64,000 nucleotides of DNA from a phage. Positions 3,012 through 57,785 of this stretch are shown here, in pieces; the stretch's first letter is position 1, and each line of letters starts with the position of its first letter. The DNA lies in sequence record PZ452579.1; one strand, written 5' to 3'. The notes under the pieces were generated by a model. The model was not told the DNA's origin and made no database searches. It worked only from the letters and a program-made list of their open reading frames with translations. The translations under genes and the position numbers were made by a program.

Positions 3012-3164
3012 AATATTTTCCTCTGTCTTATGGACGTTAGGTCATTTAGCTGATAAGCTTTATAATATCATGCCCTCAGGTAGTGTACACTCTTTTTTCG
3101 TAAAATGCTTTAATTTTTTATGTGTTATAATGGTTCTGAGTTCCATCCGGTTATTCCAATTCAG

Positions 3165-3773
3165 TCAGTAACTGACAATAGACAGATTCCAGATTGTATA
3201 ACGCCCATCTTGAATAATAGAATCTACACGCAGTGTAGTCCCTATAGGGAGCATAAATTCACATTCGTCAGATATAAGTCTAGCATTAGACCGTCTTGTC
3301 GCTTCAGGGAAAGCTCCATTGAACTCACAAGATGGCGCAGCCAGAATCATGTTAAGCATATGTTCACGGAAGTTGAAAGCAAATGGTGCATCTTTGATGC
3401 AGAACATATTAAATGTTCCGTAAAAATTATACGAAGCAAAGTTACGTGCTACACCGAACACTGGACTGAAGCTCATTACTCTGTCAAATTTAATAATACT
3501 ACCAATGCCTTTATCATCGAGTGTGGCCATAGTTTTCTTAGAGATTCCACGATACATTGTCTCAGGAACAGAAGACGACCAATTTCTACGAACAATTGCA
3601 CTTAAATCTTGTTGGATGCTATCAGGCTTGTTTTCCATACACTGCCACAGTACACTTTGTTCAATGTCGCTGAATTGCTCATCGATTTTGTACTGAAGCA
3701 TATCTTGATAATCTGGACATTGAGCACGACGAACCATTTCTTCAATTTCACACTCGTTATACGGCATAAACAT
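3165..3773 (-). CDS. modA: ADP-ribosyltransferase, ModA-like
   Basis: 202 aa; R-S-E ART signature (YRG ... SFS ... DECEF); T4 modA position. Confidence 0.7.
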   Translation of the reverse strand: MFMPYNECEIEEMVRRAQCPDYQDMLQYKIDEQFSDIEQSVLWQCMENKPDSIQQDLSAIVRRNWSSSVPETMYRGISKKTMATLDDKGIGSIIKFDRVMSFSPVFGVARNFASYNFYGTFNMFCIKDAPFAFNFREHMLNMILAAPSCEFNGAFPEATRRSNARLISDECEFMLPIGTTLRVDSIIQDGRYTIWNLSIVSY

Positions 3774-3830: not shown

Positions 3831-4412
3831 CTAAAAATTCAACATTTTCAAATGAATGATTTTGTATAATCGAGATAAAGGGTCATATTCTAAGTCTTCA
3901 ATTTCCACAATCTCAAATCGAGAGATGCCTGAGACCATGTACTCTTGTTCAGATTCAATCATATCTAGGACGTCAACACGCGTTTCTTCCATAACATGCT
4001 TAGGGTTCTTTCCGGCAAGTACAATGTTAATCATGTTTTGGTAGTAATCAAAAATGAATGGAGCATTCCTGAGACTAAGAATAGTGTACGTCTGATATTC
4101 CCATCTCCCGGAGAATTGACGAGCTGTACTGAAATCAGTTGTGAACGATGTTACTCGTCCAGGAGACCAATGGCATCCAACAGAAAGAAGGGAAAGACGT
4201 TCTACTTCTTCTGGAGTTACACCACGGTAGAGTTCTACTGGTACTGTAGAAGTCATATGCTTACGAACAAGATGGTCTAATTCATAGTGGAAATCCGGGT
4301 CTTCCTTAGAATCGGTGCAAGCCCAGAGAATGTTTTGTTCTTGGCGGGTGAATTTGCTATCAATCAGATTTGTTAGGTATTCGCGTTCTTGAAGTTCAGA
4401 TTGACATGTCAT
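3831..4412 (-). CDS. modB: ADP-ribosyltransferase, ModB-like
   Basis: 193 aa; paralogous to preceding ORF with LYRG, SFTTDFS and ExE-type motifs. Confidence 0.7.
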   Translation of the reverse strand: MTCQSELQEREYLTNLIDSKFTRQEQNILWACTDSKEDPDFHYELDHLVRKHMTSTVPVELYRGVTPEEVERLSLLSVGCHWSPGRVTSFTTDFSTARQFSGRWEYQTYTILSLRNAPFIFDYYQNMINIVLAGKNPKHVMEETRVDVLDMIESEQEYMVSGISRFEIVEIEDLEYDPLSRLYKIIHLKMLNF

Positions 4413-53665: not shown

Positions 53666-54028
53666 TTATAGACTCTCAGTAAAGGTACGAGCGATAACGT
53701 CGCGCTGCTGTTCTGGAGTCAGAGAGTTAAAGCGAACTGCATAACCGGATACACGGATGGTCAGCTGCGGATATTTTTCCGGATGCTTAACTGCATCTTC
53801 CAGAGTTTCACGACGCAGAACGTTAACGTTCAGATGTTGACCACCTTCAATTTTAACTTTAGGTTGATGTTCAATTTCAATTTCACGGGCATTCAAACCG
53901 TAGAAAATTTCCGGGTCTACAATAGCGTCTTCTTTAAAAGTCTTAGAGACAATAATCCGGGCTTGAGTGCCGTCTTCAAAATAAATAGTGCCTTTATGTG
54001 CACCTTCAAGAATTTGATATGCTTTCAT
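53666..54028 (-). CDS. Autonomous glycyl-radical cofactor (GrcA/YfiD-like)
   Basis: 120 aa; C-terminal half ...[59 protein letters not shown] matches remembered E. coli GrcA; glycyl-radical motif RVSGYAV. Confidence 0.85.
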
Positions 54029-54339: not shown

Positions 54340-54879
54340 TCATTGCATTCCAATCACAAAAAATTGAGGACGAGCATTACCGCCGATGCAATATTTGCTT
54401 TTGCAGCAGTGCTGTAATGTTTTAATGTGGACGTTGTAAATCTTATCCATATCAGGAGCTTTAATAGGCTCGTCAATTATATACAGAATACGAGAAAGCG
54501 TTAATCCACGGAATTTAGAACCTTCATTGCCAATAAAACTACGAACAGAATCAGTAAATAAACGGAATCGAATATCATCGCTAGAATAACGAGAAAATTC
54601 TTTTTCAATGTTGCCAGCAGAAATTTTAGCATAAGCTGAAGTATTAGAAAGAACAATAACTGTTCCGCCATCATACAACCAATTAGCAGCAAAGTTAGTC
54701 ACAGCAATTGATTTACCGGATTGACGTCCACCGTCTAAACGAAGTGTACAGTACTGTTTGAGTACGTCTTCAAACGGTGGGATATAACCATTCTTACAAA
54801 TTTCTTCTACTCTAGCATCAGAATGGTGTGTAAAAGCATTCATCAGGGATAGATAAGGACCAGTTAAAAATGTTCTCAT
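54340..54879 (-). CDS. Small P-loop NTPase
   Basis: 179 aa; Walker A GGRQSGKS, Walker B-like LYIIDEP. Confidence 0.55.
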   Translation of the reverse strand: MRTFLTGPYLSLMNAFTHHSDARVEEICKNGYIPPFEDVLKQYCTLRLDGGRQSGKSIAVTNFAANWLYDGGTVIVLSNTSAYAKISAGNIEKEFSRYSSDDIRFRLFTDSVRSFIGNEGSKFRGLTLSRILYIIDEPIKAPDMDKIYNVHIKTLQHCCKSKYCIGGNARPQFFVIGMQ

Positions 54880-55052
54880 TTAGTTTCTCTTTTAGGTTGG
54901 GGCCATTCCGTGGCACATGTTAGGTCCTTCGACTCGCTATGTAAACCCATTACCGCATTGCGCTCGACCTTATTACAGGTTGGAAAAGGTACATCACTCA
55001 GAGGACTCGACGTTCATGAGGAGAGGTTGCGTTTCCCTTTATTAGGCAAGAA

Positions 55053-55382
55053 TTATACTCTAGGCTTTTGAGCTTGTTTGGTATTGGATTCCCATGCGGC
55101 TTTGGTAATTTTGTTAGCGGCATAACCAAAGGCATTAGATAGAACACCTTTAGAGTTGAATACATCCAATCCAATAAGTACACCGGCTGTGTTAAATTTA
55201 GGAGCAAAGTACGCATTAGTTTTAGAAAGAGCTTTTTTCAATTCAGGGTCTTGAACCAAGCCATCAAAAACGCCTTTACTATTTACTTTATATGTTACTT
55301 TGGGATTTTTACCTTCTTCGATAGCAGCTTTCTGTTCCGCAGATAATGTAACTTCAGTGATAAACTCTTGATACGTTTTCAT
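55053..55382 (-). CDS. Internal head protein (IP) with capsid targeting sequence
   Basis: N-terminus MKTYQEFITE matches T4 IP CTS (MKTYQEFIAE). Confidence 0.7.
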   Translation of the reverse strand: MKTYQEFITEVTLSAEQKAAIEEGKNPKVTYKVNSKGVFDGLVQDPELKKALSKTNAYFAPKFNTAGVLIGLDVFNSKGVLSNAFGYAANKITKAAWESNTKQAQKPRV

Positions 55383-55407
55383 TTTGTTCCTATTGTTTTA
55401 ATTTATG

Positions 55408-55722
55408 TTATTCTTTAGGGAAGTTTTTAGAGTATGCGTCATAAAGTTTATTACCGATGCGACGGAAGACTTTAGCTGCAAAACGGTTTTCAGGGTTTTT
55501 AATCATGATTTGCATCATGTAAGTTCCTGCATCCGAAAGAGCTTCTTCGTAGTACCCATTAATTTCTTTAAGAGTCCTACGTTTACCACCAGGACCATCA
55601 ACAGTAATTTTCCATTTACCTGTAGAAGTGCGGCTCGGTGGCTCAACTTGTTCAATCCAAATATAACCACCTTCAACGCGTTGGTTGGCGGATTCTGCAA
55701 TAAATTCTTTATATGTTTTCAT
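55408..55722 (-). CDS. Internal head protein (IP) with capsid targeting sequence
   Basis: N-terminus MKTYKEFIAE. Confidence 0.7.
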   Translation of the reverse strand: MKTYKEFIAESANQRVEGGYIWIEQVEPPSRTSTGKWKITVDGPGGKRRTLKEINGYYEEALSDAGTYMMQIMIKNPENRFAAKVFRRIGNKLYDAYSKNFPKE

Positions 55723-55786
55723 TTTTTGTTTCCTTGTTTGTTTTGATAGAGTAATTATACCATATTAATACTTAAGCGTAAACAAT

Positions 55787-56047
55787 TTAAGCTTTACCGC
55801 CAGAAATAATTCCGAAGTTGTTAAAATCGTATCCAATATCGTCAACATCTACTTTAGGACTTACTACAACATAAGCAATTTCACTACGTTTTGCATAGGT
55901 GTTGATTTCTTTACCATCGCCACCTAAGAAAGAATACCCATTACGTTTTAATGAGCCAAAGTCTTCCGCATCACCAATGAAAGCTTTAACTTTAAATTTG
56001 GGGTCTTTGGCATCTGCTTCAGCTATAAATTCTTGATACATTTTCAT
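55787..56047 (-). CDS. Internal head protein (IP) with capsid targeting sequence
   Basis: N-terminus MKMYQEFIAEA. Confidence 0.7.
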   Translation of the reverse strand: MKMYQEFIAEADAKDPKFKVKAFIGDAEDFGSLKRNGYSFLGGDGKEINTYAKRSEIAYVVVSPKVDVDDIGYDFNNFGIISGGKA

Positions 56048-56053
56048 TTTTCC

Positions 56054-56467
56054 TTAGTAAATTGATTTACCATAGTATTTGTACCAAGTCGGACGTTGAG
56101 CAATTTTTTCATCTAAGCGTGCTTGACTTATCGCAATGGACGCTTCGGACGGGACGTAATTATTACGAAATTCTACAGGGATGTCGGAAATATCCTGGAC
56201 AGTCGTGTCCTTGATTTTGAAACCACGTTTCAAACATTCGGCGATTAGCTCGATTTGTCGTAAACGTAAAAATTCAAGTTTGTCGTAAAAGAATGTTACG
56301 TGACCTGTGCCTAAGATAAATGTTGGAGAGATTTTAAAATCCTTTACACGTTTACCGTTTTGAACATGTTTACGGACTGCACCAAATACGCGTGGTAATT
56401 CACGATACTCAGCCATAAGATGTTGGTCGGTCAGTTCAGAAACAAGTGTTAAATTGATACGGGTCAT
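56054..56467 (-). CDS. denV: Endonuclease V (pyrimidine dimer DNA glycosylase) DenV
   Basis: [35 protein letters not shown]... near-identical to T4 DenV; start at homologous Met. Confidence 0.92.
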
Positions 56468-56477
56468 AATTTCCTCC

Positions 56478-56525
56478 AAGTAGTTGATGAATGTATAGTA
56501 TCAAAACCCTTGGAGGAAGTAAACA
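56478..56525 (-). promoter_or_regulatory. Early-promoter/inverted-repeat cassette upstream of denV
   Basis: Minus strand GTTTAC, inverted repeat CCTCCAAG / CTTGGAGG around TACTATACA. Confidence 0.55.
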
Positions 56526-56807
56526 CTATTTTTCTGAAGCGCCTGAAATATATTTTTCAAGTCGTTGCTTCATTAGCGAGCCGTTCTTAGCGATTTCTTC
56601 CGGTTTATCGCACATACGTAACAAGGCTTCAAGCTTAGCGATATCGCTGGTACGTTCAAATTTGCGAGTATCTATCTTACTAGCAAGTTCAGAAATACGT
56701 GCTAATAGACTTTCGGCTTCAACCAAAGCTGCACCTAGCTTAGTTGCAAATGTGTCAGTAGCTTCGTTAAGAATAGATTCTGATAAAAATTCACTATATG
56801 TTTTCAT
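56526..56807 (-). CDS. Internal head protein (IP) with capsid targeting sequence
   Basis: [10 protein letters not shown] from ATG at 56807; its ATG overlaps the e stop codon (ATGA). Confidence 0.65.
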
Positions 56808-57292
56808 ATATACGCTTTCCAAGTTCCTGTTTTAAATGTTGAGATTACGCGTTTCGCGCGATTAGGTGTCTGACGATACCATTTAGATTGGGCTAGATTT
56901 ACTGCCGCCTCGTCCCAACGTTTCTGTTGAAGCATACGAAGAGAATTAGTAAAACCGGCGACGCCTGCTACACCCATTTGGAAGACCATATTGACCAATG
57001 CACATCGACGAACCGCATCTAAAGAATCATATACCGGTTTAAGTTTAGCATTACCCAAGATTCCGCGAACGGCTTTATCAACGTCTTCATTAAATAGCTT
57101 TTCAGCCTCATCAAGGGTAATTGTACCGTTGCATTTACGTCCGATCATTCTGTCAAGTTCAGCTTTAGCTACGGCTAAAGACGGGTTCTTTGTTACTAAA
57201 TGGCCTATGCCAATCGTCCAAAAGCCTTCAGTGTCTTTGTATAAAGTCAGTCTAAGACCTTCGTCATTACGAAGCATTTCAAATATATTCAT
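56804..57292 (-). CDS. e: Lysozyme (endolysin) e
   Basis: [32 protein letters not shown]... near-identical to T4 lysozyme; start at homologous Met. Confidence 0.95.
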
Positions 57293-57296
57293 AATA

Positions 57297-57316
57297 CCTC
57301 CCACGTTTATAGGAGG
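57297..57316 (-). promoter_or_regulatory. RBS-sequestering hairpin in the lysozyme 5' UTR
   Basis: CCTCC...GGAGG inverted repeat where the GGAGG arm is the SD 4 nt before the e ATG; matches the known T4 e regulatory arrangement. Confidence 0.5.
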
Positions 57317-57326
57317 TATTTATTAC

Positions 57327-57785
57327 TTATAGGAGGGTAGTGAGCACCTTATATAATGATTTGCCCATTACATATTCCCATTGAGAAGGTTTAATTAAAG
57401 CGAATGCATCAAATTCAGGAATCTGTCGTCCGTCTGGGAATGTATGATAGGAATTACAAACACTGTTTCTGAATTGCTCGTGCTCTACAGGGATGGTATA
57501 TTGGAACAGATGAATATTCTTATTGTCTGAGTAATGATGTTCACCTAGGTCTTTCAGGAAGGCAGGGTCATATTGTGTAAACCCAGTTTCTTCTTCGCAT
57601 TCACGAATAGCGGCTTCAATAGGAGATTCGCCAGGTTCGACACGGCCTTTAGGAATATCCCACCGATGAGCTAATGCACCTTTAGGACGAGAACCAGTTA
57701 CACGCCCCATGAATAATTCTTTATCTTCGGTAAGGAAAATAATACCGGCTGATAGTTCTTTCACTTTATTTTTCTTACTCATCAT
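57327..57785 (-). CDS. nudE: Nudix hydrolase NudE
   Basis: 152 aa; Nudix box GRVEPGESPIEAAIRECEEETGF. Confidence 0.8.
   Translation of the reverse strand: MMSKKNKVKELSAGIIFLTEDKELFMGRVTGSRPKGALAHRWDIPKGRVEPGESPIEAAIRECEEETGFTQYDPAFLKDLGEHHYSDNKNIHLFQYTIPVEHEQFRNSVCNSYHTFPDGRQIPEFDAFALIKPSQWEYVMGKSLYKVLTTLL

Follow-up and report, generated by a model that had tools for sequence, protein, structure and literature searches.

Could a set of small phage genes that begin with nearly the same ten codons, and then run into bodies of quite different sequence, encode proteins that travel in the head with the DNA and protect it on arrival in the host? The question is raised by four open reading frames, here named IPa to IPd, in a 64,000-nucleotide stretch of phage DNA (hereafter, the window, meaning the whole stretch that was analysed). 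[quoted passage not shown] In a phage group that has been sequenced this thoroughly they are textbook material. The class is established and named, and its leader, hypervariability and anti-restriction role have already been published, so that the present locus contributes candidates and not a new concept. An IP label is already attached to three of the four genes in public records. In the literature that we searched, RB69ORF123c–127c, the RB69 counterparts, are named in no paper, and no virion proteomics or genetics on IPa–d was found.

An Internal-Protein Locus Interrupted by denV

The window belongs to Mosigvirus (RB69-like, T4-type), and there are dozens of sequenced phages with 98% identity to it. 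A 2.5-kb segment around the ip genes aligns over its full length with the best Escherichia/Shigella phage genomes at 98.0–98.6% identity, and with RB69 at 97.8%. The locus is laid out as follows:

54340-54879, minus strand: vs.8 homolog
54880-55052: 173-nt non-coding stretch downstream of IPa
55053-55382, minus strand: IPa, 109 aa (RB69ORF123c)
55408-55722, minus strand: IPb, 104 aa (RB69ORF124c)
55787-56047, minus strand: IPc, 86 aa (RB69ORF125c)
56054-56467, minus strand: denV (endonuclease V), a conserved landmark between IPc and IPd
56526-56807, minus strand: IPd, 93 aa (RB69ORF127c)
56804-57292, minus strand: e (lysozyme), the landmark upstream of IPd
57327-57785, minus strand: nudE

IPa–d sit where IP genes are known to sit (the e–denV–vs.8 or the 57B–tRNA region), here in e–denV–vs.8, the slot that holds ipIII and ipII in T4 (order e-ipIII-ipII-denV-vs.8). 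The preliminary description had presented an array of four internal-protein genes. The four minus-strand ORFs are indeed there, with the lengths and N-termini that it gave, but the array is not contiguous, because denV separates IPc from IPd. IPc starts 6 nt past the denV stop codon, and the start codon of IPd overlaps the stop codon of e in the sequence ATGA. The mechanically called IPd ORF begins five codons upstream of the 93-aa start, at a TTG.

The spacer 3′ of IPa had no Rfam match and contained no tRNA that we could find. We also considered it as a structured RNA and rejected it, as its folding equalled that of shuffled sequences and the consensus structure was weak and without covariation.

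A Shared Leader of the Capsid-Targeting Type

The N-termini read MKTYQEFITE in IPa, MKTYKEFIAE in IPb and MKMYQEFIAE in IPc, and all four ORFs conform to the consensus MK[T/M]Y.EF[IL].E. The corresponding codons 1–10 are:

55353-55382, minus strand: CTS of IPa
55693-55722, minus strand: CTS of IPb
56018-56047, minus strand: CTS of IPc
56778-56807, minus strand: CTS of IPd

A six-frame search of the 64 kb with MK.Y.EF[ILVM].E, and with two less strict patterns, hit only these four ORFs, and the motif had no match in 200 shuffled windows. Tyr4, Phe7, Ile/Leu8 and Glu10 are present in four of four ORFs and are also kept in relatives of IPa–d from other genera. These are the critical positions: according to PMC9026906, which summarises Mullaney & Black (1996), residues 1–10 of IpIII were enough for encapsidation in truncation and suppressor experiments, residues 4 (Tyr/Phe) and 7 (Phe) matter for targeting, and residues 8 (Ile/Leu) and 10 (Glu) matter for processing by gp21. 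RB69, which is 98% identical over the locus, has genes for the prohead protease gp21 and for core proteins gp22, gp67 and gp68; these genes map outside the window.

The similarity of the leaders extends to the DNA and ends with them. Among six ip genes (IPa–d with T4 ipII and ipIII), mean nucleotide identity is 84% over codons 1–10 and 31% over codons 11–20, and the window genes share 77–93% with T4 ipII and ipIII over codons 1–10.

Two of the proteins carry a second potential cleavage motif. IPd has an L-x-E (L-N-E) at residues 13–15, which aligns ungapped with the I-T-E cleavage motif of a Tequatrovirus relative that lacks Glu10. IPa has an I-x-E (I-E-E) at residues 21–23, and in its RB69 copy Glu10 is replaced by Ala. 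In view of these second motifs, mature IPd and IPa may begin at A16 and G24, respectively, and not at residue 11.

Four Unrelated Bodies

Are the bodies behind the leader related at all? We removed the leader, built small family alignments from related phages for 11 IP body families, and compared them with hhalign; none of the 55 pairs exceeded a probability of 2.6%. Pairwise BLAST after residue 10 among IPa–d and T4 IpI, IpII and IpIII likewise gave nothing significant (best E-value 0.44), so that by both methods the bodies of IPa–d show no detectable similarity to those of T4 IpI, IpII or IpIII. The preliminary description had proposed both a T4-type CTS and bodies unrelated to each other and to T4 IPI/II/III. 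Both statements hold, because the BLAST and hhalign results and the identities of codons 1–10 and 11–20 agree with them. Pfam and PDB sequence searches with IPa–d returned no significant match. The predicted mature sizes are 8.2–10.8 kDa. The pI is basic for IPa (9.7) and IPb (9.6), acidic for IPc (5.2) and near-neutral for IPd (6.3), compared with 9.0–9.7 for T4 Ip1–3.

IPa, with a basic body of 99 aa after the leader, has homologs in 91 phage records (tblastn), 77 of them at 95% identity or more and 13, in Dhakavirus, at ~32%. A phmmer search of 1.84 billion representatives retrieved its own cluster, one 119-aa Dhakavirus cluster and nothing else. The Dhakavirus relative has the same leader and lies at the same locus, and every annotated record listed calls IPa a ‘hypothetical protein’. 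Two apparent leads to a wider family were rejected. First, IPa and IPb both match phrog_3966 over their full length, as remote paralogs would. Without the leader, however, hhalign gave 0.4%, and the phmmer search with IPa retrieved no Ip10-type protein (the type to which IPb belongs), on which grounds we regard phrog_3966 as a composite, probably joined via the leader. Second, a library search matched IPa to a 1060-aa protein with 13 MBG_2 repeats (E 2.8e-9). Against an HMM of those repeats, IPa scored 10.7 bits, a value equalled by one of 5000 shuffled sequences, while the family member P0007 scored 0.3 bits and the Pfam MBG_2 model did not match; we judge this to be a short chance match, inflated by summation over the repeats.

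IPb, with a basic body of 94 aa, is 71% identical over 100% coverage to ‘Ip10’ of Shigella phage SP18 (E 1e-40 by tblastn, 7e-39 by phmmer); proteins encoded at this locus in Karamvirus show 48–55% identity to it. It belongs to the Ip10 family by way of the SP18 annotation, which cites Ip10 of phage Pol.

Structure prediction, which the preliminary description had suggested as a check, succeeded for IPb and failed for IPa. From an alignment of 10 Ip10-family sequences, reaching down to 53% identity, AF2 produced a confident IPb model (pLDDT 84.9, pTM 0.77) with a leader helix at residues 4–11, three strands, a long helix at 58–75 and two further strands (beta3-alpha-beta2). The IPa model, made from near-identical sequences only, had a pLDDT of 52.9 and was unusable. 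Fold searches with the IPb model, two of them against the PDB, brought up no relative, solved or viral, beyond its own family; the solved IPI* structure is absent among the listed matches, its presence in those libraries being unconfirmed.

IPc, with an acidic body of 76 aa, matches phrog_2667 ‘internal head protein’ (E 1.5e-21) and has homologs in 218 phage records. IPd matches phrog_3499, of the same name (E 2e-46), and has homologs in 497 records; 258 of these, in Tequatrovirus and related phages, are below 60% identity (about 47% among those listed). Both are annotated as ‘internal head protein’ in RefSeq for phage APCEc01. In G9062, the one Tequatrovirus genome inspected, the IPd relative (48% identity) adjoins 57B, which is the ipI locus, and has the IPI-type long leader MKTFKEFATKTTITE, which aligns ungapped with IPd and is without Glu10.

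Cassettes That Come and Go at the Leader

Seven phages from five genera have seven different gene orders between e and vs.8:

T4 (Tequatrovirus): e-ipIII-ipII-denV
Window (Mosigvirus): e-IPd-denV-IPc-IPb-IPa
S143_2 (Mosigvirus): the window order plus an ipIII homolog between IPb and IPa
SP18 (Gaprivervirus): e-denV-Ip10-IPc-like-another IP
PSD9 (Dhakavirus): e-ipIII-denV-IPa-like-another IP
CC31 (Karamvirus): e-IP-denV-Ip10-like
PS49 (Karamvirus): e-Ip10-like-denV

Related phages also vary in the presence or absence of individual cassettes. When close homologs (at least 80–95% identity) are counted, IPa is represented in 77 phage records, IPb in 132, IPc in 176 and IPd in 239, and from these graded counts it follows that near relatives differ in cassette content. 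IPa has the most restricted distribution of the four.

How are the cassettes exchanged? The extra ipIII cassette of S143_2 is joined on either side within the 30 nt that code for the leader, and each of its ends aligns with window positions 55359-55391 (the ribosome binding site and IPa leader codons 1–8). Because the two junctions lie inside the CTS, S143_2 is direct evidence that the leader DNA held in common is the recombination joint. The idea itself reportedly goes back to Repoila et al. in 1994. More generally, the leader-coding 30 nt common to all ip genes would supply the homology by which whole cassettes are swapped, added or deleted, both within the e–vs.8 locus and in exchange with the second IP locus beside 57B.

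What Might the Proteins Do?

From the leader and locus of IPa–d and from the T4 proteins of this class, we infer packaging, cleavage, injection and anti-defence activity. Through its 10-residue N-terminal CTS, each protein would attach to the prohead's scaffolding core, where gp21 would cut after Glu10 at I/L-x-E, and possibly also after E15 in IPd and E23 in IPa. The mature 8–11 kDa proteins would remain in the head with the DNA and be injected alongside it. They would then act at once, ahead of phage gene expression, as stoichiometric inhibitors of host defence. The last step would most likely be the specific inhibition of modification-dependent nucleases, with type IV, GmrSD-family enzymes that cut Mosigvirus DNA, with its arabinosylated cytosine, as the most likely targets, and with each unrelated body specific for one nuclease variant.

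This scheme leans on what is known of the T4 proteins. Ip1, Ip2 and Ip3 each inhibit one distinct GmrSD-family type IV enzyme, without cross-protection, and both IP loci were proposed to be dedicated to that family (Silas et al. 2025, PMC12373910). Infection of ECOR17 depends on IpIII, and a leaderless form expressed in the cell is active (bioRxiv 10.1101/2022.04.14.488369). Mosigvirus DNA, for its part, contains mono- and di-arabosylated cytosine (5-ara-dC and 5-ara-ara-dC) and is cut by BrxU, a GmrSD-family enzyme (PMC13390438). The idea that IPs of this kind are candidate injected anti-defence effectors, put forward in the preliminary description, is in keeping with this literature.

Taken as a whole, packaged, processed and injected GmrSD-directed internal proteins of a T4-type phage are, in our assessment, the probable explanation of the locus. 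Its parts differ in strength. Judged by leader and position, IPa–d are very probably packaged IPs; by analogy with T4, the balance tips moderately towards an anti-defence function; and the assignment of GmrSD-type enzymes as their targets is tentative, falling somewhat short of an even chance. Several observations run against this explanation: IPc and IPd are not basic, Ip4–Ip10 were negative on GmrSD variants, the IPb model is unlike any solved structure, and Mosigvirus NP is BrxU-sensitive (PMC13390438) despite carrying IPd at 100% identity.

Could packaged and injected anti-defence proteins of this locus be aimed at something other than GmrSD? The target might, for example, be a modification-dependent nuclease of another kind, a BREX-, Druantia- or Lamassu-type system, or a nuclease that attacks the ends of incoming DNA. 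The charge of IPc and IPd is unlike that of the three proven GmrSD inhibitors, the IPb fold is unlike any solved structure that the two PDB fold searches listed, and Ip4 to Ip10 gave no reproducible inhibition of the further GmrSD variants tested (PMC12373910, supplementary figure 9). These negative tests, however, involved glucosyl-hmC T-even phages and a sample of GmrSD variants only, all three of the IPs whose target is known hit GmrSD, and Silas et al. argue that both IP loci serve that family. We consider targets wholly outside GmrSD unlikely.

Alternatively, the proteins might be packaged without any specific host target, as generic DNA-associated or core ‘filler’ that aids genome condensation or ejection. 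IP genes are non-essential, IPa and IPb are small and basic (pI 9.6–9.7), and a T4 head holds ~1000 IP molecules embedded in its DNA (PMC3012670), all of which would suit such a role. It would fit poorly with IPc and IPd, which are not basic, and would leave unexplained the unrelated bodies, the turnover of cassettes between close relatives and the strict one-target specificity of T4 Ip1–3. We hold the filler role to be decidedly improbable.

Late and Early Expression Signals

When would the four genes be expressed? Three sites on the minus strand bear on this:

57297-57331, minus strand: near-consensus late-promoter motifs TATAAGTA and AATAAATA, with a CCTCC/GGAGG hairpin over the ribosome binding site of e
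56495-56523, minus strand: promoter-like site TTTACT-17-TACTAT between IPd and denV, read from the sequence
55754-55782, minus strand: sigma-70, T4-early-type promoter-like site TTTACG-17-TATAAT with extended TG, between IPc and IPb

Translation of IPd is coupled to that of e, and the two genes presumably share transcripts. At the equivalent place upstream of e, T4 has two exact TATAAATA motifs, and by this analogy the motifs of the window are likely to be the source of late transcripts that reach IPd. Inside the IP locus, there is no exact late promoter TATAAATA, an observation that counts against the preferred explanation; there is also none directly upstream of T4 ipII and ipIII.

The site between IPc and IPb matches at 10 of 12 positions, is joint best among the 12 sites that a promoter scan found in the region, and is conserved in RB69. 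The site between IPd and denV is weaker and below the threshold of the scan, and fits TTTACW-N17-TAYWAT, the PeSL consensus of mobile promoter/stem-loop cassettes of T4-group phages (PMC4122927). Both sites are close to that consensus, and with such early-type sites before IPb and denV, some expression may therefore be early.

One could go further and suppose that the four are non-virion early accessory proteins, which act only after synthesis in the infected cell and keep the leader as an inherited remnant. The strong early-type site directly upstream of IPb and IPa, the lack of an exact late promoter in the locus and the lesions by which three of these ip genes are affected in the RB69 reference record, which suggest dispensability, would agree with this, but we hold it to be very improbable: the four critical leader residues are conserved throughout the four non-homologous genes and in their relatives from other genera, IPd is coupled to the late gene e, and T4 ipII and ipIII are virion proteins although they too have no exact late promoter immediately upstream.

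Implications

It is somewhat unlikely that one or more of the proteins IPa–d are directed at a target outside the GmrSD variants known to be inhibited by T4 Ip1–3. The acidic IPc and the near-neutral IPd would be the best candidates, and the target could be a nuclease specific for arabinosylated-cytosine DNA or a non-GmrSD defence. If true, counter-defence by injected proteins would reach beyond the one enzyme family known. Injected proteins alone among phage counter-defences precede phage gene expression, and they therefore decide whether modified DNA survives the first seconds. Mosigvirus phages are present in phage-therapy collections, and their arabinose-modified DNA is still cut by GmrSD-type enzymes. 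IPa–d are ready candidates for inhibitors of such enzymes, and knowledge of their targets would aid the prediction of host range.

Comparison with Known Internal and Injected Proteins

The closest known systems are the T4 internal proteins. IPa–d share the N-terminal CTS and small size with IpI*, IpII and IpIII (IpII and IpIII begin MKTYQEFIAE), and their genes occupy the slot of ipII and ipIII between e and vs.8. They differ in that their bodies have no detectable similarity to those of Ip1–3 and in that T4 has no denV inside its array. The T4 proteins are basic, whereas two of the four window proteins (IPc and IPd) are not, and each T4 protein has a defined GmrSD target, whereas IPa–d are candidates only. 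The DNA to be protected differs as well, with arabinosylated cytosine in the phage group of the window and glucosyl-hmC in T4.

Two relatives of single proteins link the locus to other genera. Ip10 of SP18 lies at the same locus as IPb, with 38 invariant positions across 10 family members, and Ip10 was negative against GmrSD variants in PMC12373910. The IP of the Tequatrovirus 57B–tRNA (ipI) locus resembles IPd (48% identity, about 258 records) but occupies the other locus and begins with a leader, MKTFKEFATKTTITE, without Glu10, while IPd has both the Glu10 and the Glu15 sites.

Outside the T4-type phages, a parallel is offered by the Dar (defence against restriction) proteins of phage P1, which are not known to use a T4-type 10-residue leader for packaging and have type I R-M systems as their targets. 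The Dar proteins are much larger than IPa–d and unrelated to them in sequence. In PMC12810830, they are described as packaged in the capsid, injected with the DNA and protective against restriction, which is the same route that we propose for IPa–d.

Recombination and Possible Decay in the Internal-Protein Genes

In Escherichia phage S143_2, a sister Mosigvirus, a homolog of ipIII is inserted (positions 993-1578 of the S143_2 sequence) between IPb and IPa, two of the four minus-strand internal-protein genes (IPa-IPd) that have a capsid-targeting leader in common. Both junctions of this insertion are flanked by an identical 33 nt, consisting of the ribosome-binding site and capsid-targeting codons 1-8, whose counterpart in the window lies at 55359-55391. 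The presence of the same 33 nt at both junctions therefore places the crossover within the leader-coding sequence.

A single PHROG family, phrog_3966 ("unknown function"), matches IPa and IPb alike over their full lengths (E about 1e-32 to 1e-34), even though the two proteins have unrelated bodies; the family looks like a composite, held together by their common leader. The C-terminus of IPc additionally matches phrog_35655, a family of only 38 residues. In some phages, vB_EcoM_PhAPEC2 and vB_EcoM-172859UKE1 among them, all that is left of IPc (in the window, the gene at 55787-56047) is its final 23 codons; these remnants may be the reason for the phrog_35655 match, and they suggest partial deletion or replacement of the IPc cassette.

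Three of the four genes are altered in the RB69 reference (AY303349; positions 2653-2982, 3051-3323 and 4126-4407 of that sequence). The leader of RB69 IPa has Ala at position 10 rather than Glu, IPb is shortened to 90 aa by a +1 G frameshift, and the leader of IPd is frameshifted (MKTYMNFYQNLS). These changes may be disabling, and they could be the result of either sequencing errors or laboratory-strain decay.

A Conserved Spacer Downstream of IPa

Between the IPa stop codon and the vs.8-like ORF lies the following stretch:

54895-55040, minus strand, conserved non-coding stretch

This stretch is present in one copy within the window, and the spacer as a whole (54880-55052) is relatively GC-rich (46.8% vs. 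37.0% window-wide). Five Tevenvirinae genera, T4 included, show little or no variation in its core, ACCTGTAATAAGGTCGAGCSCAAGYGCGGTAAWG, which the T4 annotation places within vs.8 as the first 40 codons. In the window and in RB69, the vs.8 frame across the spacer is disrupted by a 1-nt gap and an in-frame TAA. The spacer had no Rfam or tRNA match, folded no more stably than shuffled sequence and showed no covariation. It does contain a promoter-like site, TTTACA-17-TAACAT.

Nearby, a 120-aa minus-strand ORF (53666-54028) is a homolog of T4 vs.6 and carries the name autonomous glycyl radical cofactor GrcA in RefSeq.

Promoter-like Sites at Cassette Boundaries

Two early-type promoter-like sites are located at cassette boundaries:

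55754-55782, minus strand, preceding IPb
56495-56523, minus strand, preceding denV

Gene shuffling in T4-group phages is reportedly mediated by mobile PeSL cassettes (PMC4122927), and the sites before IPb and denV resemble the TTTACW-N17-TAYWAT promoters of these cassettes.
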